A stretch of DNA of 64,000 bases from Acidobacteriota bacterium (lineage in GTDB: Bacteria > Acidobacteriota > Vicinamibacteria > Vicinamibacterales > UBA8438): positions 48,946 through 112,945 of the forward strand of contig JADFPE010000001.1 in assembly GCA_022562495.1 (NCBI GenBank), read 5' to 3'. A program made the translations under genes and the position numbers. The number at the start of each line of letters is the position of its first letter. Position 1 is the first letter of the stretch. Below the pieces are notes generated by a model. It was not told the DNA's origin. It saw only the letters and a list, made by a program, of their open reading frames with translations, and did no database searches. Positions 1,871-49,623 of this stretch are shown piece after piece.

Positions 1871-1880
1871 GGGGTGAATC

Positions 1881-1925
1881 CAGGAGGCAGGAGGCAGGAG
1901 CAGCTGGTCGGCTTCGCCAGCCTCC
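1881..1925 (+). repeat. Heptamer array plus GGCTTCGCC hairpin unit
   Basis: AGGAGGCAGGAGGCAGGAGCA followed by GCTGGTCGGCTTCGCCAGC (1903-1921). Confidence 0.8.
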
Positions 1926-2828: not shown

Positions 2829-3557
2829 ATGGTAGTGAAACCCAGGAAAGACGGTCAAGAACGGCCGGTGGCCGTGCTCTGCTCGGGCGGTCTGGACAGC
2901 GCGGTGCTGGTCGCTCATCAGACGCGCCACGCCCGGGTCCACCCCGTGTATGTGCGCGCAGGACTGGCGTGGGAGCCTCAGGAACAGAACGTCCTCGGTC
3001 GGCTGCTGGCGGCGGCGCCGTTCGCGGGCCGTGTCGAGCCGCTGATACGCCTCGATGCGACCGTACGCGATCTATACACCCCGTCCCACTGGGCCGTGCG
3101 GGGCACGCCGCCTGCCTTCGACACGCCCGACTGTGACGTCTATCTGATGGGACGCAATGTCACGCTGCTCGCCAAGGTCGGACTGCTCTGTGCCCAGCGG
3201 CAGATCGGCGTGATCGCGCTGGGGCCACTGGCCGGCAACCCGTTTCCAGATGCCACCCCGGCGTTCTTCGATGCGATGGCCCAAGCGCTGTCACTCGGTC
3301 TGGACCACGACATCCAGATCGTCTCGCCGTTCGGACACTTCACGAAGGCCGAGGTGATCAGACTGGGAGTCGAGCTCGGGGTGCCGTTCGAGCTGACCCT
3401 GTCCTGCATGGGCCCGGCCGACGACCGGCACTGCGGGCGATGCAGCAAGTGCCGTGAGCGGCGTCAGGCATTCGACGCCGCTGGCGTCGTCGACCCTGCG
3501 ACGTATGCGAGCCAGACGGCGACAGGCGACAGGAGACCGGAGGCCGGAGAACGCTGA
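2829..3557 (+). CDS. queC: 7-cyano-7-deazaguanine synthase
   Basis: PP-loop VAVLCSGGLDS and C-terminal zinc-cysteine cluster CGRCSKCRER. Divergent from queD. Confidence 0.9.
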   Translation: MVVKPRKDGQERPVAVLCSGGLDSAVLVAHQTRHARVHPVYVRAGLAWEPQEQNVLGRLLAAAPFAGRVEPLIRLDATVRDLYTPSHWAVRGTPPAFDTPDCDVYLMGRNVTLLAKVGLLCAQRQIGVIALGPLAGNPFPDATPAFFDAMAQALSLGLDHDIQIVSPFGHFTKAEVIRLGVELGVPFELTLSCMGPADDRHCGRCSKCRERRQAFDAAGVVDPATYASQTATGDRRPEAGER

Positions 3558-3643
3558 CGGGGTCACAGCTCCACGAGGGTGCGCCGCGTCCCCGAATGTC
3601 GGTCCCCGGTGTCCGGTCCACGCTATTCTGGAGAGGTCTCACG

Positions 3644-4789
3644 CTATGACCGGACCGGCGCCCCGTCGGCGCCACCGGCCTGACGTGATCGCGCTTGACG
3701 CTCCAGCTCGGCGATCAACGCGTCACGGCGGTGCACCAGCTGTCGTTGCTCGCGTCGCCCGTGCTTGGACCCGACGACATACTCACAGAGGATCGGAAAG
3801 GCGATCGTCGAGTCGCAATAGGCAACCACGGTGTCCGGCAGCATGCCGGGGTTGACCTTGCCCCAGCTGATCGCCTCGGACGGGGTGGCACCCGAGAGCC
3901 CACCCCACACGACGTGGTCGGTCGTGATCTGGATGAAGTACTCGCACCCGCCCTTCGGAATGCCGTACAGCTCCCAGAGTGTCGGCTGTCCCTGCAAATA
4001 GAAGTTCTTGGGCGAGCCCCCACCCAGAATCAGGCACCCGTTCCGTGTGGCGTCCAGGATGATCGCTGCCACCTCGTTCACGTCGCGGTTGGGGTCGATG
4101 GTGCAGCCACCGCCGTGCAGCAACTCGTGGGCCGCGAGGTTCATCCCAATCGAGCTGTCACCCGGCGACGATGTGTAGATCGGCACGCCCGCGGCCGCCG
4201 CGCTCGCGACGACCGAGTGCAGCTCGCACCCGGGGTATCGGGTCATCAGGTCCTGGCCGAGCGCATAGTGGAGCGTGGCCGACGACACCGGTCCGGCGAA
4301 CGCCTGCCGGGTGAGAAAACCGCGCACGTAGGCGTCGGTCTCGAGCAGCACCTGGACCGGAAACAGGATGTCGTAGATCCGGATGACACCGTCCTTGTGC
4401 AGCTCGACGTCGTCGAGAAACGGCGAGCCACGGTGCAAGGTGAAGTTCAAAGCATAGTGCAGGTCGTGGTAGAGGTTGGCGCCGGTGCTGATGATGAAAT
4501 CGACCAGCCCTCGCTCCATCAGCTCGATCACACACCCCCCGAGCCCGGCCGGTGTCAGGGCACCGGCCACGGTGAGCCCAATCGTGGTGTCGTTCGCCGG
4601 GTCCAGCATCCTATCCGCGAAGACATGACATGCCTCGGACAGACGACCGGCGTTGAACGCCTGGAACCCCTCGTCGACCAGTCGCCGCACGTCGGCGCTG
4701 CCGCGCGGCCGGTAGTACCGGATTGGGTCGCCGCTCAGATGTCGAGTCGTGGACGTCGGTCCTGACGGGCCTGGTGTGCGATGGGGCAC
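3644..4789 (-). CDS. Deoxyhypusine synthase-like (homospermidine synthase-like) protein
   Basis: The family-typical segments AGALTPAGLGG, STGANLYHDLH and LGGGSPKNFYLQ are present. Start set at GTG 4789, 6 nt after GGAGG. The track ORF extends to 4957 through an Arg/Ser/Pro-rich segment that I consider noncoding. Confidence 0.75.
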   Translation of the reverse strand: MPHRTPGPSGPTSTTRHLSGDPIRYYRPRGSADVRRLVDEGFQAFNAGRLSEACHVFADRMLDPANDTTIGLTVAGALTPAGLGGCVIELMERGLVDFIISTGANLYHDLHYALNFTLHRGSPFLDDVELHKDGVIRIYDILFPVQVLLETDAYVRGFLTRQAFAGPVSSATLHYALGQDLMTRYPGCELHSVVASAAAAGVPIYTSSPGDSSIGMNLAAHELLHGGGCTIDPNRDVNEVAAIILDATRNGCLILGGGSPKNFYLQGQPTLWELYGIPKGGCEYFIQITTDHVVWGGLSGATPSEAISWGKVNPGMLPDTVVAYCDSTIAFPILCEYVVGSKHGRREQRQLVHRRDALIAELERQARSRQAGGADGAPVRS

Positions 4790-4894
4790 GCGGTGCCTCC
4801 GCGAGCACGAGCGACCACACCGGCTGCTGGAGCTACGAGGCCGACCGGCGCCGTGCGGCGAAAGTGTAGCACGGTCCCTTGACAGGACCGGATA

Positions 4895-6301
4895 ATGAAG
4901 GGGAAGGTACTCGGGACGCGTGTGTCCATCCGGGCGGCTCCCCGACCGCACGATCACGTGTCAGGAGGCGATTTGAGCGCGACCACCCAACCGACCCGCC
5001 GCCGTGAGGAGCTCGACCTCCCGGCTAGTTTCAAGTGGCTCGTCCAATCGCCGCTGCGTTCCGGCCTGGTCCGCTTCCTGCACTCCAGAACCAACGAGGC
5101 GTTTGGCGTCGCGGCATTGATGCAGCGCTTCGGCCGGCTGCAGCAGGATGTCGAGAACTGTCTGCGGGAGCTTGTCGCGTTCGGCGTGGCCAGACGGGCG
5201 CCAGGGACGCGGTCGCGCTACGAGGCGACGCGGCCCGGCGACGTCGCCGTCTGTCGCCTGCTCGATCGGTTCCTGGCGCAACAGGAGGCGGTCAGCAGCG
5301 AGGACCGGTCACCGGCCGTGCAGCGCTTCCGCGAGATGATCGGCACGGACGAAAAGATGGTGATCGTCTTCGAGTGGATCCGGACGGCCGCCAAGTCGGA
5401 CATCGCGGTCCTGATGCTCGGACCGACCGGCTCAGGCAAGGAGGTCGTGGCGCGGATGATCCACGAGCTCAGCCGCCGGGGTGCCGGGCGATTCCAGGCG
5501 GTCAATTGCGCCGCGTTGCCAGACACCCTGTTCGAGTCGGAACTGTTCGGCTACGAGAAGGGGGCGTTCACCGGCGCGCACGAGCGGAAACCGGGCCGGA
5601 TCGAGCTGGCTCACAACGGCACGCTCTTTCTCGACGAGATCGGCGACCTCTCGATCATGGCGCAGGCCAAGCTGCTTCGGGTCCTCGAGGACAAGAAGGT
5701 GGAGCGGCTGGGTGGACGGCATAGCATTGAGGTGAACTTCCGGTTGATCTCGGCCACCAACCGGCCCCTCGACCAGTGGGTGCAGGACGGGCGATTTCGC
5801 GAAGATCTGTACTACCGGGTCAACGCCTTCTCGATCCGGCTGCCGTCGTTGCGCGAACGAGCCTCGGACATCCCGCTTCTCGCGCACCGGCTACTTGTTC
5901 GCTACTGCGACGCGAACGGGCTTGCGGCGGACAGCAAGTCGATTGACCAGGGAGCGCTCGACCTGCTGGGTACCTACCACTGGCCGGGTAATATTCGCGA
6001 GCTCGAGAGCACGATCTCGCGCGCCGCGGTCTCGGCGCCCGGCAACGTGATCCGCGCCGAGGACGTGCAGTTTCTGCATCCGGTGGAACCGGTCGAACGG
6101 TCGCGAACACAACTCTCGTCGCTGCGCGAGGCCGAGCGGGTTCACATCCAGCTCGTCCTGGAGGAGGTCGCCTGGAACAAGAAGCAGGCGGCCAAGATTC
6201 TCGAGATCAGCCGCGGCACCCTCTATCGCAAGATCGGTGAATACCACATGGAACCCCACCAACCCGAGCCGACCGCTGCGGCACAACCCAGCGACCGGTA
6301 G
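4895..6301 (+). CDS. Sigma-54-dependent transcriptional activator (AAA+ domain, no receiver domain, C-terminal Fis-type HTH)
   Basis: Walker A GPTGSGKE, the GAFTGA loop (YEKGAFTGA), and C-terminal AAKILEISRGTLYRKI. The N-terminal roughly 150 aa is not a receiver. The real start may be TTG 4973, which follows AGGAGG at 4963-4968. Confidence 0.85.
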   Translation: MKGKVLGTRVSIRAAPRPHDHVSGGDLSATTQPTRRREELDLPASFKWLVQSPLRSGLVRFLHSRTNEAFGVAALMQRFGRLQQDVENCLRELVAFGVARRAPGTRSRYEATRPGDVAVCRLLDRFLAQQEAVSSEDRSPAVQRFREMIGTDEKMVIVFEWIRTAAKSDIAVLMLGPTGSGKEVVARMIHELSRRGAGRFQAVNCAALPDTLFESELFGYEKGAFTGAHERKPGRIELAHNGTLFLDEIGDLSIMAQAKLLRVLEDKKVERLGGRHSIEVNFRLISATNRPLDQWVQDGRFREDLYYRVNAFSIRLPSLRERASDIPLLAHRLLVRYCDANGLAADSKSIDQGALDLLGTYHWPGNIRELESTISRAAVSAPGNVIRAEDVQFLHPVEPVERSRTQLSSLREAERVHIQLVLEEVAWNKKQAAKILEISRGTLYRKIGEYHMEPHQPEPTAAAQPSDR

Positions 6302-9520: not shown

Positions 9521-10174
9521 CTACCCGGAACGGCCCTTGCCGCGGGTGCGCGACCGGCCCTGACCGGATCGATCGGAACGACCCGGGTTCGACGAACGGT
9601 TGGCCGAACGTGGTCGTGGGGGACGTGACCCGTTCTTGCCGTGTCCGACCCAGCCGAACTGTCTGTCATTGCCGTCGGCGCGATTACCGTTCGGTTGCCC
9701 CTGGGATTTGCCGCCCGGCCGCCGTGCTCGCCGCGGCCCGCCGTCGCGATTGACGGTTTCCCGAATTGTGAACACCGGCGCCTGTCGGATAGGTGGCGGC
9801 GTGCCCTCCGGTCGTTCGAGCGTTGCGCGGATCAGCGATCGTCGGACCGAATCGACCAGCGACGGTTGGGCGGACTCGACCGCCGGGGGCGGGTCGGGCG
9901 GCGCCTCAGGCGCCGCGGGTTCGGCGTTGGCCGGCCCTTGCAGCGCCGGCGCGGCGCCGGCAGCACTGGCGCTCGACAACGCGGCGACCAGTCGTGTCTG
10001 GCGTCGCGGCGGCACCCGGGCAGCCTTGTATGGATGCTCGGTGTCGCACGTCGTGCACCGGGTCAGTTTGATCTCGTCGCCGACGAGGGCGACCACGGCG
10101 TGATTGGTCACGCGGCGTTCGCGTGGGCAGTAGTCATCTAGGACATCACCCAGGCCATGCTGACGCTGCTCCAT
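9521..10174 (-). CDS. Hypothetical protein: N-terminal Cys-rich (zinc-ribbon-like) module plus long Arg/Gly/Pro-rich disordered tail
   Basis: 217-aa ORF. DDYCPRE...LTRCTTCDTEHPY supplies C-x23-C-x2-C-x3-H. The C-terminal half is low complexity (RRARRPGGKSQG...RSRTRGKGRSG). Confidence 0.6.
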   Translation of the reverse strand: MEQRQHGLGDVLDDYCPRERRVTNHAVVALVGDEIKLTRCTTCDTEHPYKAARVPPRRQTRLVAALSSASAAGAAPALQGPANAEPAAPEAPPDPPPAVESAQPSLVDSVRRSLIRATLERPEGTPPPIRQAPVFTIRETVNRDGGPRRARRPGGKSQGQPNGNRADGNDRQFGWVGHGKNGSRPPRPRSANRSSNPGRSDRSGQGRSRTRGKGRSG

Positions 10175-10676: not shown

Positions 10677-12086
10677 TCAAGACCGTGTCTCGGCGTCGCG
10701 GGCGACGACGGTCAGCTCGTCCACCCACCCGCGCGTCTCGAGGAGCGCCGCTGCCACCGCCTCGGGCGCTGTCGACTGCGGGGTCCGCCGCGCCGTCACC
10801 GATCCACGCGCCGTGATCCGTCCGGCGGCGTCGGCATCCAGCCGGTTGTGATACCGCCGCCAGGCATCCGGTGACAACGACGCGAAGTCACGGTTCGTTG
10901 CCAGCAGGTCCCGAACCATGCGGCCGACGACCTCGTGGGCCTCCCTGAACGGCACGCCGCGGGTCACCAGCAGATCCGCGACGTCGGTAGCCAGTGCCAG
11001 CCCGGACGCGGCGGACTCGGTGTGTGCGGGGTCGAGGCTGAGAGACCGTACGACAATCGTTGTTGCCCGGGTCGAGCGTTGCACCGTGGTCTCGGCATCG
11101 AACACCGCCTCCTTGTCCTCCTGCAGATCTTTGTTATACCCGCTCGGCAGCCCTTTCATCGTCGTCAGCCACCCGGTCAAGTGGCCGATCACGCGACCGG
11201 TCTTGCCGCGCACGAGCTCGAGCGGGTCGGGGTTCTTCTTCTGAGGCATCAGGCTGCTGCCGGTGGTGACCGCATCGGCCAGTCCGAAGAACCCGAACTC
11301 CTCGCTGGTGAAGATCACGAGATCCTCGGCCAGCCGACTCAGGTGCACCATCGTCCCCGCGCACGCATAGAGAAACGCCGAGACGAAATCACGGTCCGCC
11401 GTCGCGTCGAGACTGTTGGCCACCACGCGGGAAAATCCTAGGCGCCCGGCGAGCGCCGCCGTGTCGATGGCATAGCTTGTGCCGGCAACCGCGCCGGACC
11501 CGAGGGGCAACGCGTCGGCTTCCTCGCGGGCGATCTCCAGACGACGGTGGTCCCGTCGCAGCGCTGCGGCGTGCGCCAGAAAGTAGTGCGCCACGAGGAT
11601 CGGCTGCGCCCGCCTGAGATGCGTATAGGACGGCATCAAGGCCGGTCCGGCGGCCTCGGCGCGGCCGGCCAGGGCGTCGACCAGCGCCACGAGCTCGCAC
11701 TGCAGTACCGCGATGCGACGACGCAGATACAGACGCAAATCGAGCGAGACCTGCTCGTTGCGCGAGCGGCCGGTATGCAGCCGCTTTCCCGCGTCCCCGA
11801 CGCGTTCAATCAGCTGGCGCTCCACGAACGCGTGGATGTCCTCGTCCGGCCCGTCGATGAAACCGGGGTCGGCGCGACCGCGGTCCCGGATCTCGAGGAG
11901 CGCCGTTCGGATCGCGGTCGCCTCGCCGCGGGACAGCACCTCGGCCCCGACCAGCGCCTCGGCCCAGGCCAGACTGCCGGCCACGTCATCTTCGAACAAC
12001 CGCCGATCGAACTCGAACGAGGCCTGAAATTCGAAGACCTCGCTGTCGGGCGGCGCGTCGAACCGGCCGGACCACAGATGGGTCAT
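10677..12086 (-). CDS. argH: Argininosuccinate lyase
   Basis: N-terminus LWSGRFD and the fumarate-lyase signature GSSLMPQKKNP. Confidence 0.95.
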   Translation of the reverse strand: MTHLWSGRFDAPPDSEVFEFQASFEFDRRLFEDDVAGSLAWAEALVGAEVLSRGEATAIRTALLEIRDRGRADPGFIDGPDEDIHAFVERQLIERVGDAGKRLHTGRSRNEQVSLDLRLYLRRRIAVLQCELVALVDALAGRAEAAGPALMPSYTHLRRAQPILVAHYFLAHAAALRRDHRRLEIAREEADALPLGSGAVAGTSYAIDTAALAGRLGFSRVVANSLDATADRDFVSAFLYACAGTMVHLSRLAEDLVIFTSEEFGFFGLADAVTTGSSLMPQKKNPDPLELVRGKTGRVIGHLTGWLTTMKGLPSGYNKDLQEDKEAVFDAETTVQRSTRATTIVVRSLSLDPAHTESAASGLALATDVADLLVTRGVPFREAHEVVGRMVRDLLATNRDFASLSPDAWRRYHNRLDADAAGRITARGSVTARRTPQSTAPEAVAAALLETRGWVDELTVVARDAETRS

Positions 12087-12100
12087 AGGGAGAAGAAACC

Positions 12101-12270
12101 TCAGTAGTCAGAAGTCAGAAGAGAGCCGGTCGGCTTCGCCGGCGTGCATGTGTCCTACCCGAGGCTCCCCTTACTTGTAGCGCTCCCGAGGCGCGATGAC
12201 CGGGGGGTCGATTTCTAGATGTCGGCGCAGCCTTCCAAAGCTCTCCTGCCTCCTGCCTTCTGACTTCTTG
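12101..12270. repeat. Composite inverted heptamer-array element between argG and argH
   Basis: Left arm TCAGTAGTCAGAAGTCAGAAGAGAG plus hairpin GCCGGTCGGCTTCGCCGGC. Right arm CTCTCCTGCCTCCTGCCTTCTGACTTCTTG. The unique core between them is roughly 100 nt. Confidence 0.8.
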
Positions 12271-12281
12271 TGCATTCGTGT

Positions 12282-13481
12282 TTACCCCTCCGCGCCGCGC
12301 TGCTTCGCAGCGGCCAGCTCGACCGGCAACCCCCAGAGCTTGATGAAACCCTCCGCGGCGCTGTGGTCGAACTGGTCCCCCTCGTCGTAGGTGGCGAGCG
12401 CTTCCTCATAGAGCGCATACGGTGACCTGCGCCCCACGACCCGGCAATTGCCCTTGAACAGCTTGAGCCGGACACTGCCGGTCACCCACTGCTGCACGTT
12501 GGCGACCAGCGCATCGATCGCGCGCCGGGTCGGAGTAAACCAGAGACCGTTGTACACGAGGTCCGCATACACGGACGACAGCCCACGCGTGATCCGCTCG
12601 AGGTCTTTCGAGATCACCAGAGTCTCGAGCTCGCGATGGGCCATGTGCAGCACGACCGCCGCCGGGGCCTCGTAGATCTCCCGGGACTTGATGCCGACGA
12701 GCCGGTTCTCAACCATGTCAATCCGCCCCACACCGTGGGCGCCGGCGATCGTCTCGAGACTGCCGATCAGCTCGACCAGCGGCATCGCGACACCGTTGAC
12801 CGCAGTCGGCACGCCCTGCTCGAAGTTCAGCTCGACATGGGCCGGCGCGTCAGGCGCGTCCGCCGGCGACTTGGTCAGCGTGTAGACCTCCTCGGGGGCC
12901 TCCGTCCACGGGTCCTCGAGCACACCGCACTCGATCGATTTCCCCCAGAGGTTCGAGTCGGTGCTGTACGGGCTGTCGACCGTGGCAGGCACGGGGATAT
13001 TGCGCTCCCGCGCGTAGGCAATCTCGGCCGGACGTGACATGCCCCATTCCCGCGCCGGCGCCACCACCCGGATCGCTGGGTTCAACGCGCGCGCCGAGAC
13101 GTCGATCCGGACCTGGTCATTCCCCTTGCCGGTGCAGCCGTGCGCGATCGCGCTGGCCGACTCCATCTCTGCGATCTCCACCAACCGCTTCGCGATAAGC
13201 GGACGACCGAGCGCGGTTGCCAGCGGATACTGGCCCTCGTAGAGCGCGCCCGCCTGCAACGACGGGAGCACATACTGCTCGGCGAACTCGTCGCGCACAT
13301 CGAGCACGTGGCACCGAACCGCCCCAACCGCCATCGCCCGCTCACGCACGTCGTCGAGCTCCTTCCCCTGACCCAGATCCAAGGTGACCGCCACGATCTC
13401 CGCCTGATACTTCTCCGCCAGCCACGGAATCGCAACCGAGGTGTCGAGACCGCCCGAGTATGCGAGCACGATACGTTCCAT
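12282..13481 (-). CDS. argG: Argininosuccinate synthase
   Basis: MERIVLAYSGGLDTS ATP-binding motif. ATG 13481 is preceded by AGGAAG. The track ORF extends to 13598 into a repeat. Confidence 0.95.
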   Translation of the reverse strand: MERIVLAYSGGLDTSVAIPWLAEKYQAEIVAVTLDLGQGKELDDVRERAMAVGAVRCHVLDVRDEFAEQYVLPSLQAGALYEGQYPLATALGRPLIAKRLVEIAEMESASAIAHGCTGKGNDQVRIDVSARALNPAIRVVAPAREWGMSRPAEIAYARERNIPVPATVDSPYSTDSNLWGKSIECGVLEDPWTEAPEEVYTLTKSPADAPDAPAHVELNFEQGVPTAVNGVAMPLVELIGSLETIAGAHGVGRIDMVENRLVGIKSREIYEAPAAVVLHMAHRELETLVISKDLERITRGLSSVYADLVYNGLWFTPTRRAIDALVANVQQWVTGSVRLKLFKGNCRVVGRRSPYALYEEALATYDEGDQFDHSAAEGFIKLWGLPVELAAAKQRGAEG

Positions 13482-13523
13482 CTTCCTGTTGCTCCTGACT
13501 GTCGCTGTCGGGTCAACCACGAC

Positions 13524-13696
13524 GGAGGCAGGAGACAGGACGCAGGAGGCAGAAGAAAGCTGGACGGCTACGCCAGCTTCTTCCACGAACACGATCAACC
13601 CCTATCAGACAGGCGGCAATGACGAAGCTCGGCCGATCTACGACTCGCCCGGCCGCTCCGATTCCTCCTGTCTCCCGCCTCCTGTCTCCTGTCTCC
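13524..13696. repeat. Composite inverted heptamer-array element between argR and argG
   Basis: Left arm GGAGGCAGGAGACAGGACGCAGGAGGCAGAAGAA plus hairpin AGCTGGACGGCTACGCCAGCT. Right arm CCTCCTGTCTCCCGCCTCCTGTCTCCTGTCTCC. Confidence 0.8.
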
Positions 13697-13709
13697 TTGG
13701 AATTCCCCA

Positions 13710-14162
13710 TTACCCCTTCGCCCATCCCCCGAGCCGCCGTTCGATCGTTCTGGCGCTGCGCTCGACGCGCGTCACCACCAGGACCGTGTCGTCCCCGGCC
13801 AGCGTGCCGACCACCTCGGGCCACGCAGCCTGGTCGAGCGCGAAGGCCAGCGGCTGCGCGTGCCCCGGTTCGGTCTTCAGGACCAGCAGCTGCTGGACCC
13901 GGTCGACCCGACGCAGATGCTCCACGACCGCCCGTCGCACCCTGTCGCCTGTGACGGCCGGCAACCGCGTCTCGGCCGGGGCCGTTCGATACGCGCCGTC
14001 CGCCGCCCGCTTGACGAGCCCGAGCTCCTTGATGTCCCGCGAAATCGTCGCCTGTGTCGCCTTGATCCCCCGTACGGCCAGCTGTCGCCTGAGCATGTCC
14101 TGGCTGCGCACGGCGTGCCTGGACACGAGATCGAGGATCGCCGACTGGCGGTAGGTTTTCAT
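13710..14162 (-). CDS. argR: Arginine repressor
   Basis: 150-aa protein with the winged-helix N-terminus RQSAILDLVSRHAVRSQDMLRRQLAVRGIKATQATISRDIKELGLVK. Located inside the arg cluster. Confidence 0.9.
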   Translation of the reverse strand: MKTYRQSAILDLVSRHAVRSQDMLRRQLAVRGIKATQATISRDIKELGLVKRAADGAYRTAPAETRLPAVTGDRVRRAVVEHLRRVDRVQQLLVLKTEPGHAQPLAFALDQAAWPEVVGTLAGDDTVLVVTRVERSARTIERRLGGWAKG

Positions 14163-14299: not shown

Positions 14300-15291
14300 T
14301 GGCTGACGCTATCTCCATCGGGATCGCCGGCGCCACCGGGTACGCTGGTCAGGAGCTGATCAGGCTGGCCGCGCGACACCCGGCGGTCCGGCTCACGATG
14401 GCGATGGCCTCCGGCACCGCCGACAGCGTCCGGACGCTGCCCTCGCTGACTCGCGTCTGGGACGGTGAGGTCACGCCGCTGTCGGTCGACCGGCTGGCGG
14501 CCGAGACCGACGCGGTGTTCATGACCTTGCCAGACCCGGTTGCAGCGGAGGTGGGTCCGGCGCTCGTGGCGCGCGGTGTGCGGGTGTTCGATCTGTCCGG
14601 CACGTTTCGGCTGCGGGACCCGGCGCTACGCCGTCGCTGGTACCCCGCCACGCCGGCTCTCGCAGAACCGGCCGTCTATGGCCTGACCGAGCACTACCGG
14701 GCGGCGCTGCCAGACGCGCGGCTGGTCGCCTGTCCGGGGTGCTACCCGACCGCGGCGGTGCTCGCACTCCGACCACTGATCGACGCCGGTCTGCTCGAAG
14801 GCGACATCGTCATCGACGCCAAGTCGGGCATCTCGGGCGCCGGCAAGACGCCATCCGAGCGCACCCATTTCTCGGAGTGTTACGGCAGTGTGGCCGCCTA
14901 TGGCCTCTTCGAGCACCGGCATGGCGCCGAGATCGAGCAGGAGCTCGAGCGGACCGTGACGTTCACGCCGCATCTCGTCCCGTTGGACCGGGGCATTCTC
15001 GAAACGATCTACGTGCGCGTGCGACAGGCAGTCAGCGAGACGATGGTCGCGACCGCGCTCGAGCAGGCTTACGCAGACGCGCCGTTCGTCCGGCTCAGGG
15101 GTGAGGCCCTCCCCGAGATCAAGCACGTCACGTACACCAACTTCTGCGACATCGGCTGGCAGCTCCACGCACCGTCGGGGCGGCTGGTGCTCGTTGTCTG
15201 TCTGGACAACCTCGTCAAGGGGGCGGCCGGTCAGGCTCTGCAGAACCTGAATGTCGCGTTCGGATTGGACGAGACGACCGGATTGTCATGA
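14299..15291 (+). CDS. argC: N-acetyl-gamma-glutamyl-phosphate reductase
   Basis: GATGYAGQELIRL NAD-binding N-terminus and active-site Cys context PGCYPTAA. Confidence 0.95.
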   Translation: MADAISIGIAGATGYAGQELIRLAARHPAVRLTMAMASGTADSVRTLPSLTRVWDGEVTPLSVDRLAAETDAVFMTLPDPVAAEVGPALVARGVRVFDLSGTFRLRDPALRRRWYPATPALAEPAVYGLTEHYRAALPDARLVACPGCYPTAAVLALRPLIDAGLLEGDIVIDAKSGISGAGKTPSERTHFSECYGSVAAYGLFEHRHGAEIEQELERTVTFTPHLVPLDRGILETIYVRVRQAVSETMVATALEQAYADAPFVRLRGEALPEIKHVTYTNFCDIGWQLHAPSGRLVLVVCLDNLVKGAAGQALQNLNVAFGLDETTGLS

Positions 15292-16211
15292 CCGGGGATG
15301 CGGCCACGATCGTACTGAAGCTCGGCGGCGAGTTGCTGGAGGAGCCGGATGGACGCCGAGACATCGCCACGGCCATCCGCCGCCTCGCGTCACGGTCCCC
15401 CCTCGTCGTCGTGCACGGCGGTGGGCGCGAGGTCGACGCGGAACTGGCCGCCAAGGGGATCCCACAACAGGCGGTCGATGGGCTCCGTGTGACTGACGCG
15501 GCCACCCTCGACGTTGTCGTCCGGGTGCTCGCGGGCCGTGTGAACACCCAGCTCGTGGCCGCGGCCCGGGTCGCCGGGGTGCAGGCGGTCGGGCTGACCG
15601 CTGCCGACGCCGGTGTGTCGACGGTCACGCGGGCAGAGCCCTACACGGCGGCCGACGGCACCCTCGTCGACCTGGGTTTCGTCGGGCAGCCAACTGGCGC
15701 CGACCGGCCCGTGCTGCTGGACCGGCTCTGTCAGGCGGGTCTCGTGCCGATCGTGGCCAGCATCGGCGCCGACGACCGAGGGCAGTTGCTCAACGTGAAC
15801 GCCGATACGTTGGCCGGGCATCTCGCAGCGCGGCTGGGCGCCGCGCGACTCTTGATCGCCGGCGGCACGGCCGGCGTGTTGGACGCGCAGGGTCGGACCA
15901 TCCTATCGATGGATATGGACATGCTGCAACGGGCCATCGCGGACGGCCGGGCCAGGGCGGGGATGGTCGCCAAGCTGATCGCATGTCGCGAGGCCCACCG
16001 CGCCGGTGTGGGTCGGATCGACATCGTCACTGGCACGCACACCGACAACCTGGACAGCAGCGCGGGTACGACGATATTGCTGTCCGGGCTCGAGGGCTCG
16101 GTGTCTGAGAGAAAACAGGATGGCTACACAGGGACAGGACATCCAGGCAGTCGAGGCCGAGCACCTGCTGCAGGTGTACAACCGCGTGCCGATCGTGCTC
16201 ACACGCGGTGA
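15288..16211 (+). CDS. argB: Acetylglutamate kinase
   Basis: VVVHGGGREVD and the amino-acid-kinase fold. The ATGA start overlaps the argC stop. The reading frame runs 92 nt into argD (see findings). Confidence 0.9.
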   Translation: MTGDAATIVLKLGGELLEEPDGRRDIATAIRRLASRSPLVVVHGGGREVDAELAAKGIPQQAVDGLRVTDAATLDVVVRVLAGRVNTQLVAAARVAGVQAVGLTAADAGVSTVTRAEPYTAADGTLVDLGFVGQPTGADRPVLLDRLCQAGLVPIVASIGADDRGQLLNVNADTLAGHLAARLGAARLLIAGGTAGVLDAQGRTILSMDMDMLQRAIADGRARAGMVAKLIACREAHRAGVGRIDIVTGTHTDNLDSSAGTTILLSGLEGSVSERKQDGYTGTGHPGSRGRAPAAGVQPRADRAHTR

Positions 16212-17319
16212 GGGGAGCTATGTCTACGACATCGCGGGGCACGCATATCTGGACTTTCTCACCGGGATCGGCGTGGCCTCGCTGGGGCACGCGCACCCGG
16301 GATTGGCCGCCGCACTTGCCGAGCAGGCCCGCACGCTGCTGCACACCTCGAACCTGTATTTCCATCCCCTCCAGGGGCAGGTCGGCCGCCGGCTGACAGC
16401 GCTGTCGGGTCTCGCGCGCGCTTTCTTCTGCAACAGCGGCACAGAGGCGGTGGAAGGCTGCCTGAAGTTCGCGCGGCGGTACTGGCATACACGCGGTGAG
16501 ACCGCGCGCACCCGGATCGTCGCCCTGGAACGGTCGTTTCACGGCCGCACCTTCGGGTCGCTGTCGGTCACCTGGACGCCAGGGTATCGCACACCGTTCG
16601 AGCCGCTGCTCGACGGGGTCGCCTTCGTCTCGCCGACTGACCCGGAGGCCCTCGACACGGCGGTCGGCTCCGACGTGGCCGCGATCATCCTCGAGCCGAT
16701 CCAGGGTGAGGGGGGAATCTGGCCGTTGTCACCGGAGTTCGTCGACGCGGTCACCGCGGCCTGTGAACGTACCGGCACCTTGCTGATCGCGGACGAGATC
16801 CAGTGCGGACTGGGCCGGACCGGCGCGCCGTTTCACTCGGCGACGCTGGGGTTGCGTCCCGACCTGATGGCCCTCGGAAAGGCGCTGGGCGCGGGGGTGC
16901 CAATCGGCGCGATCTTGATGAGTCAAGAAGTGGCGGATGCGATCTCGCCGGGTGACCACGGCACGACGTTTGGCGGCAACCTCCTGGCCTGCCGGGCGGC
17001 GTTGGTGTACCTCGATGCCATGGAGCACGGCGGTCTGGCCCGGGTCCGAGTCGCCGGCGCACGCCTGGCAGACGGCCTGCGAGCGCTGGCGACCCGGTAT
17101 CCCGTGATCACGGACATCCGCGGCGCCGGACTCATGCGCGGTCTCGAGATGACCGAGGCGGTGGCAACGCGGGTCGTCGCCGGCGCGTTGGCCCACAATC
17201 TCCTGGTCAACCGCACCGCGGGACGGGTCGTGCGCCTGCTCCCGCCGCTGACCATCTCCGACGGGGAGATCGACGAAGGGCTGCAGATTCTGGATACGGT
17301 CCTGAGTGAAGCGCAGTGA
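16120..17319 (+). CDS. argD: Acetylornithine aminotransferase
   Basis: Class-III aminotransferase with N-terminus LLQVYNRVPIVLTRGEGSYVYD and PLP-lysine context DLMALGKALGAG. Start set at ATG 16120. Confidence 0.9.
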   Translation: MATQGQDIQAVEAEHLLQVYNRVPIVLTRGEGSYVYDIAGHAYLDFLTGIGVASLGHAHPGLAAALAEQARTLLHTSNLYFHPLQGQVGRRLTALSGLARAFFCNSGTEAVEGCLKFARRYWHTRGETARTRIVALERSFHGRTFGSLSVTWTPGYRTPFEPLLDGVAFVSPTDPEALDTAVGSDVAAIILEPIQGEGGIWPLSPEFVDAVTAACERTGTLLIADEIQCGLGRTGAPFHSATLGLRPDLMALGKALGAGVPIGAILMSQEVADAISPGDHGTTFGGNLLACRAALVYLDAMEHGGLARVRVAGARLADGLRALATRYPVITDIRGAGLMRGLEMTEAVATRVVAGALAHNLLVNRTAGRVVRLLPPLTISDGEIDEGLQILDTVLSEAQ

Positions 17320-17885
17320 TCGCGATGGACCCGACCCGCACCCCGACGACCCGACACGGCATCCGCGACCCGGCCGCGACGACGGCCCCCCTCGAGATCC
17401 GGCCGGCTGGTCGCCCCGACGTAACGGCCATCAGCCGGCTCGTGACCGCGAACGTCGGTCTCGGACATCTCTTGCCGCGCACACCGGAGGAAATCGAACG
17501 CCACGTGTCCCGGTTTCTCGTCGCAACCCTCGACAACACCGTGCTCGGGTGTGGTGAACTGGCGCCACTCAGCGAGAGACTGTCCGAGATTCGGTCACTG
17601 GTCGTGGCCGCCGGGTCGCGCGGGACCGGTATCGGTACCGCTGTCCTGGCGGCGCTCGTCGCCGGGGCCCGCCGCCAGGGCGTGCCGCGTCTGTGTGCCT
17701 TCACACACGTACCGCACCCCTTCGTGGCAATCGGTTTTTCGATCGTGCCACACACCTGGCTGCCGGAGAAGATCATGACCGACTGCCAGGGGTGTGAGTG
17801 GTTCCGGCGCTGCGAGCAAACTGCGGTCGTCATCGAGCTCGGGTGGGGTCAGAGCGGACCACGCGGCACGGCGAGGACGATCTGA
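17316..17885 (+). CDS. GNAT-family N-acetyltransferase (short N-acetylglutamate-synthase-like)
   Basis: GNAT acetyl-CoA motif LVVAAGSRGTGIGTAVL. Embedded between argD and argJ with overlapping stop/start codons on both sides. C-terminal CQGCEWFRRC cysteine cluster. Confidence 0.75.
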   Translation: MIAMDPTRTPTTRHGIRDPAATTAPLEIRPAGRPDVTAISRLVTANVGLGHLLPRTPEEIERHVSRFLVATLDNTVLGCGELAPLSERLSEIRSLVVAAGSRGTGIGTAVLAALVAGARRQGVPRLCAFTHVPHPFVAIGFSIVPHTWLPEKIMTDCQGCEWFRRCEQTAVVIELGWGQSGPRGTARTI

Positions 17886-19087
17886 TGGTCGAGCGCATCA
17901 CGGGGGGCATCACCGCACCGGCGGGCTTCGAGGCTGCCGGGGTCGCGTGCGGCATCAAGGCAACCGGGCTGGACCTCGCGCTGATTGTCTCGACACCACC
18001 GGCGCGGGCGGCCGGCATCTTCACGACGAACCTGGCGGTAGCGGCGCCGGTCGTGGTCACCCGCGAACACCTTCGGCGGTCGCACGGCACCACGTCGTCC
18101 ATCGTCATCAACAGCGGCTGCGCGAACGCCTGCACCGGCGACCAGGGGCTGGCGCTGGCCCGGGCGATGGCGACCGACACGGCCCGCACCATCGGGTGTT
18201 CTGCAGAACAGGTCCTCGTCTCGTCCACCGGTGTGATCGGCGTCCAGCTGGACGGCGAGAAGCTACGCCACGGCATCACGCACGCCGCCGCAGCGCTGAG
18301 TCGCGACGGGCATGAGGCGGCGGCCGAGGCCATCATGACGACCGACCCATGGGCAAAGGAGGCGGCCGTTCGGGCCACGACGTCCGCCGGTGTCTTCCAC
18401 ATCGGTGGGATGGCCAAGGGCGCCGGGATGATCGAACCGAACATGGCCACCATGCTGGGGTTTCTGACCACGGACGCCGATGTCGGACCGGATCTGCTGC
18501 AGCGCGCGCTCGCAGAGGCAGCCGATGACACGTTCAATGCCATCACGGTCGACGGCGAAACGTCGACCAACGACATGGTCTTGTTGCTGGCCGGGGGGCG
18601 TTCCGGCGTCCGGATCGACGAGACCGGCTATCCGGCGTTCGTCGATGCGCTCCACACCGTGTGTCGGGAGCTGGCGCTCGCCGTCGTCACGGGGGGCGAA
18701 GGCGCCACCAAGCTCATCACGGTCACCGTCACCGGCGCGCGCACGACCGCCGAGGCCAAACAGACCGCACGCGCGATCGCCAACTCGCCGCTCGTGAAGA
18801 CGGCGGTGCACGGTGGCGACCCGAACTGGGGCCGACTGGTGGCGGTCGCCGGGCGAGCCGGTGTCGCATTCGATCTCACGCACGCGCGGGTCCGAATCGG
18901 TGAGGTCGAGCTGTTCGGCGACGGGCAGGTTTTCGCTGACCGGGAGCCGGCCGCAGCCGAGCACCTGAAGGGGGCAAAGGTCGCGATCGGGGTCGACGTG
19001 GGCGTCGGCGGCACCGGCACCGCCACCGTCTGGACCTGTGACCTCAGCGCCGAGTACGTCCACATCAACGCGGACTACCGAACATGA
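17885..19087 (+). CDS. argJ: Bifunctional ornithine acetyltransferase / N-acetylglutamate synthase
   Basis: Autoprocessing-site context ATMLGFLTTDA and the conserved C-terminus ADYRT. ATG 17885 overlaps the upstream stop codon. Confidence 0.95.
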   Translation: MVERITGGITAPAGFEAAGVACGIKATGLDLALIVSTPPARAAGIFTTNLAVAAPVVVTREHLRRSHGTTSSIVINSGCANACTGDQGLALARAMATDTARTIGCSAEQVLVSSTGVIGVQLDGEKLRHGITHAAAALSRDGHEAAAEAIMTTDPWAKEAAVRATTSAGVFHIGGMAKGAGMIEPNMATMLGFLTTDADVGPDLLQRALAEAADDTFNAITVDGETSTNDMVLLLAGGRSGVRIDETGYPAFVDALHTVCRELALAVVTGGEGATKLITVTVTGARTTAEAKQTARAIANSPLVKTAVHGGDPNWGRLVAVAGRAGVAFDLTHARVRIGEVELFGDGQVFADREPAAAEHLKGAKVAIGVDVGVGGTGTATVWTCDLSAEYVHINADYRT

Positions 19088-19111
19088 GGCTCCAAGACCG
19101 AGACACACTCT

Positions 19112-20122
19112 ATGGACACCATCAGCGACACGAAATCCGTATCGAGTGAGGATGCCGTCGCGCCGGACGTGATGCCCAGGACGGGCCGCACCTATCTGTC
19201 GGTGCTCGACCTGTCGCCCGAAGCACTCGAGGCCTGCCTCACGCTGGCCGCGCGGTTGAAGCGGGAGCGGCATTTGGGTGCCGACGCGCCGACGGCGCGG
19301 GCGCTCAGGGGACACTCGCTGGCGCTGCTGTTCGACAAGCCGTCGCTACGGACCAGGACCGGATTCGAGATCGCGATGCGGGAACTCGGCGGGAACGTGA
19401 CTTGTCCGCCGTCGGCCGACGCCCTTGGCACGCGTGAACCGCTTGCGGACGTGGCACGTTCCCTCGAACGATGGGTGTCGGTCGCCGCGATCCGCACCTC
19501 CGAGCAGATGCGGCTGCGCGAATTCGTCGAGGCCACCACGCGACTGCGCATCGTGAACGCCTTGACCAACGAGGAGCACCCCTGCCAGGCACTGGCCGAC
19601 TGTCTGACCGTGCGCGAGCGATGGGGTGCGGTGCGGGGTCGCACGCTGGCGTATGTCGGCGACGGCAACAACGTGGCCGCCTCGCTGACCCACGCCGCGA
19701 TGATGCTGGGACTGAATCTGCGGCTGGCATCACCCAAGAGGTTTGCCCTGCCGGAGGCGACACTCACCGCGGCCCGCCGGGTGGCTCGTCACGGCGCGAC
19801 GGTCGTGCAGTTACAGGACCCGGTCGAGGCGGTTCGTGGTGCCGACGCCGTCTACGCCGATGTCTGGACCTCGATGGGACAGGAAGCGGACCAGACTCGC
19901 CGCCGCGCTGCGTTCCAGGGCTATCGGGTGACGAGCGCGCTCATGGCCGAGGCCAACGACGACGCCGTCTTCATGCACTGTCTGCCGGCGCACCGAGGCG
20001 AAGAGGTCGACGCGGACGTCTTGGAGGGCCCGCGCTCCGTGGTGTTCGACCAGGCGGAAAACCGGCTCCACACCCAGAAGGCGTTATTGCTGATGATGCT
20101 GGGCGGCACGGACCTGTGCTGA
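19112..20122 (+). CDS. argF: Ornithine carbamoyltransferase
   Basis: Carbamoyl-phosphate motif PSLRTRTGFE, HPCQALAD, ornithine loop DVWTSMGQE, and HCLPAHRGEEV. Confidence 0.9.
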   Translation: MDTISDTKSVSSEDAVAPDVMPRTGRTYLSVLDLSPEALEACLTLAARLKRERHLGADAPTARALRGHSLALLFDKPSLRTRTGFEIAMRELGGNVTCPPSADALGTREPLADVARSLERWVSVAAIRTSEQMRLREFVEATTRLRIVNALTNEEHPCQALADCLTVRERWGAVRGRTLAYVGDGNNVAASLTHAAMMLGLNLRLASPKRFALPEATLTAARRVARHGATVVQLQDPVEAVRGADAVYADVWTSMGQEADQTRRRAAFQGYRVTSALMAEANDDAVFMHCLPAHRGEEVDADVLEGPRSVVFDQAENRLHTQKALLLMMLGGTDLC

Positions 20123-20739: not shown

Positions 20740-20800
20740 CTGAAACTGGCGAAGCCCTCCGACTGTCCCCTGACTCCGGCCTCCTGACTTCGGCCTTCTC
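20740..20800 (-). repeat. Heptamer array plus hairpin unit (reverse orientation) between purD and purE
   Basis: The plus strand reads CTGGCGAAGCCCTCCGAC then TCCCCTGACTCCGGCCTCCTGACTTCGGCCTTCTC. This is the complement of the array-GGCTTCGCC unit. Confidence 0.75.
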
Positions 20801-20813
20801 GAGCATCTTCTCG

Positions 20814-29335: not shown

Positions 29336-29442
29336 GGTTTTCGGAGCGCGGCGCCCGGCTGGCAAGGCGCGAGGAGGGAGCAGCCAGGCGGGCTGTGACC
29401 GACGAAGCAACGCCGCCAGGCGGGACGCCCCGTCCGAAAACC
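29336..29442. repeat. Conserved structured module, copy A2, closed by a different 10-bp stem
   Basis: GGTTTTCGGA (29336-29345) and TCCGAAAACC (29433-29442) enclose GGCGCCCGGCTGGCAAGGCGCGAGGAGGGAGCA...CAACGCCGCCAGGCGGGACGCC, which is homologous to A1 and A3. Confidence 0.75.
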
Positions 29443-30574: not shown

Positions 30575-30628
30575 GCTGGCGAAGCCCACCGGCCGTCTCC
30601 TGTCTCCTGTCTCCTGTCTCCCGACTCC
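30575..30628 (-). repeat. Heptamer array plus hairpin unit (reverse orientation) between two glycosyltransferase genes
   Basis: GCTGGCGAAGCCCACCGGC followed by CGTCTCCTGTCTCCTGTCTCCTGTCTCCCGACTCC, i.e. (CCTGTCT)n. Confidence 0.85.
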
Positions 30629-41763: not shown

Positions 41764-41773
41764 AGAGAGACTC

Positions 41774-41929
41774 GAGAAGGCAGACGTCAGAAGGCAGACG
41801 TCAGGAAAAAACCGGAGGGCTTCGCCGACGTGGGCTCGCTGCAACCAGGTTGGCTGAAAACGATGCGCTGGCTGCACTAATGCTGGCGACAGCCGACCGC
41901 TTCATTCTGCCTTCTACCTTGCTGACTGC
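41774..41929. repeat. Composite inverted heptamer-array element downstream of gpmI
   Basis: Left arm GAGAAGGCAGACGTCAGAAGGCAGACGTCAGGA plus CCGGAGGGCTTCGCCGACG. Right arm CATTCTGCCTTCTACCTTGCTGACTGC. The core contains ATGCTGGCGACAGCCG, also present at 47262-47277. Confidence 0.75.
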
Positions 41930-41962
41930 TTTACCTCGAGGGCGCGAAGCGCGCTCGAGACA

Positions 41963-42268
41963 TCATTCGGCCGGCTGACCCGCTTCGTCTACGGCAATCC
42001 GGAGGGAACGCAGGAAGCGGCGGTCGTTGGAGCTCATCACGCCAATCTCGCCCACCGACCCACCCTTTGCTACGGCGACGCCGGCTTTGGCCAGTCCTTC
42101 CCTCTTGGGCCGGTTCGCGAACCCGATGACCGCCTCGAGCGACACCTTCATACTGTAGCCGGCGGCCCTGGCTTTCTCGTGACAGGCCTCCACTCGGTGA
42201 TCGTCCGCGACGGCGGCGGCCATGGCGTCGGCCAGCTCCCGCGACAACCGGTTCACGACATCGTTCAT
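41963..42268 (-). CDS. Small hypothetical protein
   Basis: 101-aa ORF with non-repetitive composition. No recognisable family. Confidence 0.4.
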   Translation of the reverse strand: MNDVVNRLSRELADAMAAAVADDHRVEACHEKARAAGYSMKVSLEAVIGFANRPKREGLAKAGVAVAKGGSVGEIGVMSSNDRRFLRSLRIAVDEAGQPAE

Positions 42269-42612: not shown

Positions 42613-44163
<1,551 letters not shown>

Positions 44164-44177
44164 TGACACGTGACCCG

Positions 44178-44225
44178 CAGAAGTCAGAAGGCAGACGTCC
44201 GAAGAACGTCGGTGGGCTGCGCCAC
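44178..44225 (+). repeat. Heptamer array plus hairpin unit downstream of the mutase gene
   Basis: CAGAAGTCAGAAGGCAGACGTCCGAAGAA followed by CGTCGGTGGGCTGCGCCAC. Confidence 0.75.
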
Positions 44226-44226
44226 T

Positions 44227-44352
44227 TTAGGGTCCGCGCAAGAATAAGTTCCCCCGTTGTGGGGCGTCGAGGCGCCTGGCTGGCACGGCGCGAAGAGGGA
44301 GCATACGGGCAGTATTCGACCGACGAGCAACGCCGCCAGGCGGGATGCATCG
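44227..44352. repeat. Conserved structured module, copy A3
   Basis: TTAGGGTCCGCGCAAGAATAAGTTCCC...GAGGGAGCATACGGGCAGTATTCGACCGACGAGCAACGCCGCCAGGCGGGATGCATC aligns along its length with 1951-2062, with few substitutions. Confidence 0.8.
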
Positions 44353-47174: not shown

Positions 47175-47280
47175 GGAGTCAGAAGGCAAAAGAGCATCGG
47201 TGGGCTGCACCGTCGACAACGGACCGCGTCGGTTTGATTCGGTCAGACCGGCTGAAGTGATGCTGGCGACAGCCGTCTCA
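47175..47280 (+). repeat. Heptamer array, hairpin unit and shared core segment
   Basis: GGAGTCAGAAGGCAAAAGAGCA, then TCGGTGGGCTGCACCG, and later GATGCTGGCGACAGCCG, which is shared with the 41774-41929 element. Confidence 0.65.
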
Positions 47281-49597: not shown

Positions 49598-49623
49598 CAA
49601 GAAGTCAGAAGTCAGACCTCAGA
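49598..49623 (+). repeat. Heptamer array unit
   Basis: CAAGAAGTCAGAAGTCAGACCTCAGA. Confidence 0.7.

Follow-up and report, generated by a model that had tools for sequence, protein, structure and literature searches.

A 64-kb stretch of the genome of an uncultured soil bacterium of the Vicinamibacterales (Acidobacteriota), hereafter the window, has a G+C content of 66.7% and carries the arginine genes argR, argG and argH in one minus-strand operon (Table 1). Each of the two spacers of this operon (12087-12281 and 13482-13709) contains a purine-rich array of tandem heptamers on one strand and another such array on the opposite strand. Arrays of this kind, most of them joined to a short GC-rich hairpin, were found all over the window, and where two modules converge in an arg spacer, an otherwise short gap within the operon is enlarged to ∼195-230 nt that can form a stem-loop.

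Tandem Repeats Finder (TRF) detected period-7 arrays at all loci named in a preliminary description of this DNA, each of which contains the array or hairpin features described there, and at one extra locus, 3517-3550. The window total is 16 arrays at 13 loci, 10 on the plus strand and 6 on the minus strand, with no strand skew. The dimer pattern GDCAGRAGDCAGRA (up to one mismatch; units G[GAT]CAG[GA]A) had 30 matches in the window versus 0.64 expected, with a maximum of 3 in 100 shuffles, and the anchor GGCTKCGCC had 14 matches versus 3.85 expected. Ten arrays were followed by this anchor (one mismatch allowed); the gap was exactly 12 nt in eight cases and 11 nt in one, with 29 nt in the degenerate copy at 3521. 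Because the gap is fixed, array and hairpin should be considered as one phase-locked unit.

By crude longest open reading frame (ORF) calls, which divide the window into 86% coding and 14% non-coding DNA, 12 of the 16 arrays fall between genes (P = 6e-8). These calls draw three gene ends too long; after curation (with the ATG for argG, the correct frame for argR and the start of purE) the count rises to 15 of 16. The preliminary description was right that this is a strongly intergenic repeat family with a hairpin partner. The one array inside a coding sequence (CDS), 3517-3550, was overlooked at the time and is situated in the 3′-end of queC.

A complete module starts with a leader of ∼10-12 nt, continues with two to six purine-rich tandem heptamers (G-N-C-A-G-R-A) and a linker of 11-12 nt, and ends with an imperfect GC-rich hairpin with consensus GAAGCCGGAG-GGCTTCGCC-GGCTTC, where GGCTTCGCC is at the centre. 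For 84 non-redundant modules with three or more units, collected from the window and from metagenome loci, the anchored consensus was (CAGRAGN)n-GAAGCCGGAG-GGCTTCGCC-GGCTTCTG. The heptamer phase can be detected back to position -45 and conservation ends at +8 past the anchor; the next three bases are a mixture of GGC, AGC, ATC and GTC. Where a stop codon precedes the array, the leader that separates the two is mostly 8-14 nt long; such leaders have a weak, GAATGCTC-like consensus and are enriched in mini-palindromes (arms of at least 3 bp in 18 of 35 leaders versus 9.1 in shuffles). Examples of mini-palindromic leaders, from the window and from L105, L151, L159 and L173 (L numbers designate metagenome and genome contigs, relatives of the window being read as 20-kb pieces), are GAGCGCTC, GGAATTCC (window positions 13698-13709), GCACGTGC and GAGTGCTC.

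Table 1. Coordinates of the arg genes, of the heptamer modules and of the other repeats discussed in the text (window positions unless a contig is named)
Feature	Position	Strand	Placement	Parts and remarks
argH	10677-12086	-		
argG	12282-13481	-		
argR	13710-14162	-		
Module	1871-1921	+	directly past stop (1868-1870) of + gene 1163-1870	leader 1871-1882; array 1883-1900 (GGAGGCAGGAGGCAGGAG); hairpin GCTGGTCGGCTTCGCCAGC 1903-1921
Degenerate array, no clear hairpin	3517-3550	+	within last codons of queC (2829-3557)	encodes tail ...TATGDRRPEAGER*
Module antisense to arg operon	12087-12143	+	array end 14-15 nt from argH start codon (12086)	array 12101-12121; hairpin GCCGGTCGGCTTCGCCGGC 12125-12143; orthologous single module in L118
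Interior of argG-argH insert, unique	12144-12214	.		homologues found only at orthologous loci
Module, mRNA sense	12215-12281	-	directly past argG stop (12282-12284)	leader ACACGAATGCAC; array 12243-12269; anchor GGCTGCGCC 12224-12232 (- strand)
Module antisense to arg operon	13524-13580	+	43 nt from argG ATG (13481)	array 13524-13556; hairpin AGCTGGACGGCTACGCCAGCT 13560-13580
Interior of argR-argG insert	13581-13664	.		common only to orthologues L001, L002 and partly L085/L086; holds degenerate hairpin of minus-strand module
Array, mRNA sense	13665-13709	-	directly past argR stop (13710-13712)	leader TGGGGAATTCC; array 13665-13697, with 4.7 units; strains differ by SNPs at position 2 of the unit
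Module	20746-20813	-	directly past purD stop (20814), in purD-purE spacer	leader CGAGAAGATGCTC; array ∼20768-20800; anchor GGCTTCGCC 20748-20756
Module antisense, between two + genes	30575-30628	-	array end ∼24 nt from putative start of gene at 30652	anchor 30578-30586
Module	41764-41829	+	directly past stop of + gene 40198-41763	array 41774-41806; anchor 41818-41826
Convergent partner module	41880-41929	-	∼34 nt past stop of - gene 41963-42268	degenerate array 41900-41929; hairpin GGTCGGCTGTCGCCAGC on - strand
Module	44164-44225	+	directly past stop of methylmalonyl-CoA-mutase-like gene (42613-44163)	array 44176-44203; anchor GGCTGCGCC 44215-44223
Short module	47175-47212	+	∼24 nt from, and antisense to, start codon of - gene 46438-47151	anchor variant GGCTGCACC
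Array and divergent GC-rich hairpin	49000-49036	+	between two - genes	array AGGAGTCAGGAGACAGGAGG; hairpin CCGGGCCGGCCGGC
Array, no canonical anchor	49598-49623	+	∼14 nt from, and antisense to, start codon of - gene 49077-49583	
Array, 4-nt tip and inverted array (one near-perfect hairpin)	54077-54139	+	begins 5 nt past stop of 53042-54076; ends 31 nt ahead of next + gene	without GGCTTCGCC tip
Second repeat family	1936-2075, 44220-44352, 29350-29425			
L110 ribD-region arrays	4739-4771, 4951-4981, 5246-5277, 5289-5305 (L110)			
L063 in-frame arrays	2318-2384, 15283-15300, 15675-15705 (L063)		in asd-like, lysA-like and dapF-like ORFs	
L005 repeat regions	9560-9960, 16154-16218, 17962-18085 (L005)			

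A metagenome scan with two units and the anchor gave at least 120 loci, on contigs with G+C from 0.40 to 0.72. In the contigs with lower G+C the module often takes the form of an array, a GGCTTCGCC tip and an inverted array, which fold into a single long hairpin right past a stop codon; the window copy at 54077-54139 is a tip-less version of this arrangement. In viral contigs there were nine matches, about four of them genuine arrays. Per 10 kb, the window has 2.2 heptamer arrays, congeners have 0-0.5 and other phyla have 0.05 (1.3 Mb of ArgG loci), a contrast that reflects a lineage burst of arrays in the window's lineage.

The exact ArgG protein of the window is also encoded by L001 and L002, metagenome contigs with an identical gene order. 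In a protein database its relatives on long contigs have 80-94% identity; in a species collection the closest are Vicinamibacterales metagenome-assembled genomes (MAGs) with 76-78% identity and an Acidobacteriota MAG with 72%, the rest being <60%. Comparison of these relatives showed that orthologous sites may be filled or empty. In L001 and L002, which belong to the same species as the window, both arg spacers hold identical inserts with few single-nucleotide polymorphisms (SNPs) in the arrays, at heptamer position 2. In L083/L084 (92% ArgG identity), L087 (88%) and L088 (86%) the argR-argG and argG-argH spacers are empty, 18-46 nt long, and the argR-argG spacer is also without insert in L003 and L004. 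At the empty argR-argG site of L083 the stop codon is followed by TGGAGA-GTGGTTGACCCGACAG..., and both the window and L085 have kept the 45-nt argG leader of this site, on the 3′ side of their insert. L085/L086 (91%) have the argR-argG insert, with a different repeat in the argG-argH spacer.

The argG-argH spacer of a close relative, L118, is 59 nt long and consists of one antisense module; 2 nt separate its hairpin end from the stop of argG, and 15 nt separate its array end from the ATG of argH. At this place the window has the orthologous module, a second, sense module past the argG stop and a unique interior of 83 nt. The pair in the window was assembled stepwise, from separate modules. The purD-purE module of the window is absent from congeners, and other sequences occupy their spacer. 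The presence/absence differences between sister genomes, proposed as a check in the preliminary description, are real for both the arg and the purD-purE modules, and the modules are lineage-specific insertions at CDS edges, occurring singly or as convergent pairs.

Arrays gain and lose units between strains in the manner of microsatellites. L133 has one extra CAGAAGG unit in the module at 44164-44225, and the arms of the argR-argG insert have 2.7 and 2 units in L085/L086 versus 4.7 and 5 in the window, which shows that lineages can differ in both arms at once. One could argue from this polymorphism that the arrays are purely local microsatellites, each produced by replication slippage in place, as has been suggested for heptamer repeats at large, with no movement between loci, especially as heptamers are the commonest class of long simple-sequence repeats in many bacteria (Mrazek 2007, as reported in PMC4679880 and PMC4692102) and as other heptamers occupy equivalent places in related and other genomes (L005, L110). 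However, a non-repetitive hairpin motif of ∼25 nt is found in a fixed 12-nt register at 10 window and >80 metagenome loci, and its recurrence in fixed register makes repeated independent origin implausible. Entire inserts of 130-180 nt at sites that are empty in relatives are a further difficulty, and we regard an exclusively local origin as improbable.

The position of modules relative to genes follows a clear pattern. The array end has a median distance of 12 nt to the nearest CDS boundary, while the hairpin end has a median distance of 94.5 nt to the next one; the array end was the nearer in 51 modules and the hairpin end in 12 (Wilcoxon P = 3.7e-6). Where the neighbour was within 30 nt, it was the stop codon of a co-oriented gene 40 times and a start codon in antisense 7 times, with stop-to-array distances clustering at 8-14 nt. 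The earlier claim that orientation is unrelated to the flanking genes is wrong, then. This geometry matches the 5′-ORF-proximal pattern reported for other heptamer repeats by Rehm et al. (2015; PMC4692102). Classified by spacer type, 57 modules were co-directional sense (28), co-directional antisense (13), convergent (11) or divergent (5), the background of 398 spacers being co-directional (244), convergent (78) or divergent (76); divergent spacers are thus rarely used (5/57 versus 76/398). An inverted array was present ≤300 nt downstream of 16 out of 77 modules (21%), at a spacing of 9-235 nt; a direct array was present in 0/77.

A GC-rich hairpin located 30-60 nt past a stop codon may be taken for a factor-independent terminator or attenuator, given that those of a high-G+C organism can lack U-tracts, and some copies do lie between convergent genes (1871-1921; the pair 41764-41829 and 41880-41929). 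Still, convergent spacers are not enriched (11/57 versus 78/398), most modules are found between co-directional genes and inside operons (argR-argG-argH, purD-purE) and about one third of the copies are antisense. There is no T-run past the hairpins or past the anchor in the 84-module consensus, and a scan of the arg region for sigma-70 promoters and T-run terminators called no site in the spacers. We assign a terminator function little probability.

Folding gave a mixed picture. The RNA of the argR-argG spacer has a predicted fold in which the two arrays are paired (-110 kcal/mol, z -4.55); for the argG-argH spacer the z value was only -0.87. Folds of the tip hairpin beat those of shuffled sequences and are more stable on the sense than on the antisense strand (-11.2 versus -9.3 kcal/mol), and three rival registers can be drawn for the tip: GAAGCC-GGAG-GGCTTC; CCGG-N9-CCGG extended by GAAG/CTTC; and GGC-TTC-GCC. 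In folds of whole elements there was no consistent strand preference, plus and minus being mixed.

Compensatory changes in the stem had been proposed in the preliminary description, and the pair table of 49 modules of the main subtype, collected with the anchor in the search pattern, does not support them: the only variable pair, -5/+1, was C-G in 17, C-A in 14, T-A in 4 and T-G in 5 modules, with no association. The 3′ base of this pair is A or G whatever its partner, and the outer GAAG/CTTC pairs are merely conserved. In fixed register 46% of the pairs were Watson-Crick, and G-U (79) versus A-C (88) counts showed no strand asymmetry. A primary sequence kept without compensatory change fits descent, or a site that is read as sequence, and not a selected RNA fold. 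A search of the whole window against Rfam at gathering thresholds gave 0 matches, in line with the preliminary description, whose author recognized no described element; in E-value mode the arg spacers and the segment 1860-2100 had chance matches to long, miRNA-like hairpins only. Analogies with CsrA, Hfq, KOPS, Chi and boxA sites were dropped because of poor motif fits and the lack of strand skew in the window.

The observations support the view that the family behaves more as dispersed DNA of the repetitive extragenic palindromic (REP) or MITE type (MITE, miniature inverted-repeat transposable element) than as a conserved regulator. We propose that the module is a REP-like dispersed repeat fused to a microsatellite. 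Arrays would lengthen 5′ of the hairpin when the polymerase stalls and slips; the 5′ stem, GAAG, continues the array in the same phase. The two arms of a pair may be kept matched by template switching between inverted repeats, a mechanism by which quasipalindromes are corrected in Escherichia coli. The hairpin-bearing module would be dispersed to new sites by a trans-acting activity, with REP/RAYT as the nearest analogy. Modules co-transcribed with their neighbours would place a stable, C-poor stem-loop in 3′ untranslated regions (UTRs) and intercistronic spacers, where it probably affects the stability of mRNA 3′-ends or the insulation of cistrons; a dedicated regulator of arginine genes is unlikely. 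We estimate the probability of this package as a whole, comprising slippage, template switching, trans dispersal and a limited RNA effect, at about one half.

A number of points weigh against this proposal. The steps of slippage and of template switching are deduced from module anatomy only. No transposase, RAYT or reverse transcriptase was found beside copies in the window and in the 20-kb pieces of relatives, where no systematic search of all ORFs was made. No target-site duplication could be defined by comparison of filled and empty argR-argG and purD-purE sites, the spacers being too diverged, and the interiors of paired elements have no homology to each other or to other loci, unlike the interior of a classical MITE. 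Four further observations hint at selection for a function of the transcript: the 8-14-nt spacing from stop codons, the sense bias (28 versus 13 in co-directional spacers; 40 stop-adjacent versus 7 start-adjacent), the maintenance of one ∼25-nt motif across contigs of 40-72% G+C and the greater stability of the tip hairpin on the sense strand (in 65/80 modules versus 15/80, P = 6e-8).

These four observations would be expected if the module were an RNA element that the host has selected and that acts in cis, in 3′ UTRs and between cistrons. Such an element could work by binding of a CsrA-like protein to the repeated CAGGA, by an effect on the terminating ribosome (the array begins at about the end of the mRNA channel when the stop codon is in the A site) or by keeping Rho off the purine-rich, C-poor sense transcript while antisense transcripts are given a C-rich loading site. 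The CAGGAG[GAT] of the arrays presumably resembles the CAGGAxG repeats of CsrB. Yet presence or absence at orthologous sites varies among near relatives, and the densities of congeners are more than four-fold apart. Many units have GAA, not GGA, and so are without a GGA motif or Shine-Dalgarno-like sequence; the arrays are often in stems, not loops. Together with the absence of covariation, the inconsistent strand preference of whole-element folds and the copies lying in frame within coding sequences, this makes a host-selected RNA element, the main rival of our proposal, unlikely.

Doubtful, too, is the idea that the module is the footprint of an undescribed process acting in several phyla that writes heptamer arrays at CDS borders, or else represents a new class of stop-codon-proximal 3′ UTR elements. 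In the first version a nuclease, transposase or polymerase recognizing the hairpin may nick beside GGCTTCGCC and add or copy 7-nt units; in the second the element may interact with terminating ribosomes or with Rho. Either version, if true, would account for the geometry shared by the unrelated heptamers of Xanthomonas, Nostoc, Beggiatoaceae, Omnitrophota (L063) and Acidobacteria and for the leader of ∼10-12 nt, often mini-palindromic, between stop codon and array.

Returning to the proposal of a REP-like repeat fused to a microsatellite, we compared the family with known dispersed repeats. As with REP sequences, a short, GC-rich and imperfectly palindromic sequence is present many times outside genes; the conserved terminal tetranucleotide tag of REPs (GTAG or CGTC) is missing, there being no GTAG after the anchor. 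In common with REP/BIME/REPIN sequences, which RAYT transposases mobilize (PMC3116915, PMC2817692, PMC3733652), it is located at gene 3′-ends and inside operons, often as convergent pairs, with lineage-specific expansions, conservation by descent and hundreds of extragenic copies, the last being extrapolated here from the window density. In contrast to REP/REPIN, it has a microsatellite on one side, and the spacing (9-235 nt) and interior of its pairs are variable; REPINs are inverted doublets with conserved spacing, copied as a unit, whereas the pairs here have unrelated interiors. Nor do we see the terminal inverted repeats, target-site duplication and conserved interior of a MITE, as arrays serve as inverted arms in 21% of modules only. 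Of the earlier MITE/REP-like interpretation, the part concerning a dispersed repeat of REP/MITE type with insertion polymorphism is retained; the idea that each inverted pair is a single MITE is not supported, as interiors are unique and the argG-argH pair was assembled stepwise.

The family was also said not to be recognized as a described element, which is correct with regard to its sequence and incorrect with regard to its kind, since intergenic heptamer repeats have been reported, one set from Xanthomonas and Nostoc (PMC4692102) and one from Beggiatoaceae (PMC4679880), and heptanucleotide long simple-sequence repeats of prokaryotes were described in 2007 by Mrazek, as these two papers relate. 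GGGAATC of Xanthomonas and GGGGA(C/T)T of Nostoc are intergenic heptamers located nearer to the 5′ neighbouring ORF in any orientation, ≤50 nt past the stop (coding strand) or before the start (non-coding strand), with a preference for spacers between aligned ORFs and rarity between divergent ones (PMC4692102). The present family has the properties of heptameric long simple-sequence repeats that were examined here (tandem units, non-coding excess, proximity to the 5′ ORF, unit variation), including runs of two to six 7-nt units, and it shares with the repeats of Rehm et al. the preference for co-directional spacers, the rarity in divergent ones and the inverted repeats. It differs in the unit, GNCAGRA, which does not uniformly bear a G-tract, in the Acidobacteriota host and in the phase-locking of the array, with its short leader, to a non-repetitive GGCTTCGCC hairpin, which is not reported for those repeats.

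The same positional geometry (PMC4692102) raises the question whether the arrays form G-quadruplexes, as GGGAATC and GGGGAYT repeats do; (GGAGGCA)n has at least four GG tracts and could form two-tetrad quadruplexes. However, GTCAGAA and GGCAGAA units, which have no GG tract, occupy the same module position and are mixed with GGA units in one array. By sequence, the family has neither at least four G-tracts per array nor a preference for four units, and a G-quadruplex origin appears highly improbable.

The TAACTGA repeats of marine Beggiatoaceae, cyanobacteria and Bacteroidetes (MacGregor 2015; PMC4679880) are likewise abundant intergenic heptamers in 2-6 copies, with a single unit scattered over distant lineages and some copies within ORFs; they are AT-rich and mostly situated a few nt upstream of start codons on the sense strand, and no hairpin is described for them, unlike the present family. 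The placement of a hairpin beside an array has a possible parallel in Nostoc, and the cyanobacterial STRR are further heptamer repeats. Elhai and co-workers reportedly found, in 2008, small dispersed repeats (SDR) that form hairpins and are mobile in heptamer arrays of Nostoc punctiforme; our family belongs to another phylum and has another sequence, and its hairpin is at the 3′-end of the array in fixed register, not inserted within it.

Several copies are found inside reading frames. The C-terminal tail of QueC (...TATGDRRPEAGER*, window 3517-3557) is encoded by the degenerate heptamer array; the homologue in L085 has a tail that is array-like but different, and the one in L088 ends soon past the conserved DPAxY, without tail. 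A heptamer array appears to have been absorbed into the queC frame. In ribD of L110 (4113-5258), a metagenome contig of 56% G+C, a complete module (CAGAAGT x4.7 and the GGCTGCGCC hairpin) is in frame between the two domains, in their linker. The peptide SAIGNRQSAI comes from another array in frame, AATCGGC x4.4, and two further heptamer arrays are at the stop codon. RibD homologues are 368-426 aa long, with length differences partly in the array-encoded loops, and in the array loop of L110 they carry other peptides with a 7-residue period (e.g. NSKLKTKNSKL). L063, an Omnitrophota MAG of 43% G+C, has in-frame GAAGTCA/AGAAGTC arrays, made of the window's unit, without the GGCTTCGCC hairpin. Modules and arrays are therefore tolerated in frame within genes. 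Rickettsia palindromic elements are MITEs that insert in frame into genes, and the ribD and queC copies are similar in that small palindromic DNA is tolerated both in spacers and in frame; unlike those elements, our family has no conserved full-length element and no terminal inverted repeats besides the arrays, and no target-site duplication was found.

We found no description of the family in a literature search for Acidobacteria or Vicinamibacteria. The composite, phase-locked module of leader, microsatellite and GGCTTCGCC hairpin appears to be new in comparison with Rfam and the searchable literature, and so do the quantified stop-proximal placement, the abundance in Vicinamibacterales and the series of empty, single and double states in one operon. 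Few soil bacteria are as abundant as Vicinamibacterales, whose genetics is almost unstudied; about one array per 4.5 kb, as in the window, would by extrapolation, not by count, amount to >1000 copies per 6-Mb genome. The family lengthens operon spacers and adds tails and loops to proteins (QueC; RibD elsewhere), it will mislead gene callers and short-read assemblers, and it offers markers for strain typing. It joins heptamer microsatellites between genes to REP-like hairpins, neither of which is well understood, and a phase-locked module with a set position relative to stop codons gives a handle on the origin and the effect of the arrays.

Repeats of other kinds occur in the same or similar spacers. 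In L085 a GC-rich repeat (GCGCGCC.CGCGGGCGCGGCGCGGGGCTT.GGG..CCCGC.AGCGCCCGCGTG.GGTTCGGGGCG.AGCCCCG), at 2390-2480 and 11400-11490, occupies both the purD-purE and the argG-argH spacer; different congeners thus have different repeat families in these spacers. In L005, an Acidobacteriota MAG with 72% ArgG identity, the argR-argG spacer of ∼400 nt contains an inverted pair of CACGGAG/CACAGAG-like repeats, and the contig also has GGCTCAG arrays and a CAGCTGG inverted pair right past a stop; the architecture is alike and the units are different. A perfect GC-rich hairpin, CTCGAGGGCGCGAAGCGCGCTCGAG, with no clear T-run, adjoins the module pair of the window at 41935-41960; the genes on its two sides, 40198-41763 (+) and 41963-42268 (-), converge on it.

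Another repeat family, not related to the first, with a core of 80-134 nt (GGCGCGA(C/G)GAGGGAGCA-hairpin-GACCGAGGAGCAACGCCG-CCAGGCGGGATGC) and not present in Rfam, has 78-90% identity across many Vicinamibacterales contigs (L173, L191, L089, L094, L163, L165, L170, L171, L178, L201, L205, L085/L086 and others). In L173, and in the window at the modules 1871-1921 and 44164-44225, it directly follows the heptamer module downstream. Compensatory changes are seen in its central hairpin (UA 12, GC 4, CG 3; AU 14, CG 4), and the family may represent either a structured RNA or a MITE.

Among the relatives of the window, L001 was called with one fused 745-residue product for ArgJ and ornithine carbamoyltransferase (3360-5597), whereas these are two separate genes in L002 (240-2477) and in the window (17798-20122); the fusion is probably due to a frameshift or an assembly difference between strains.

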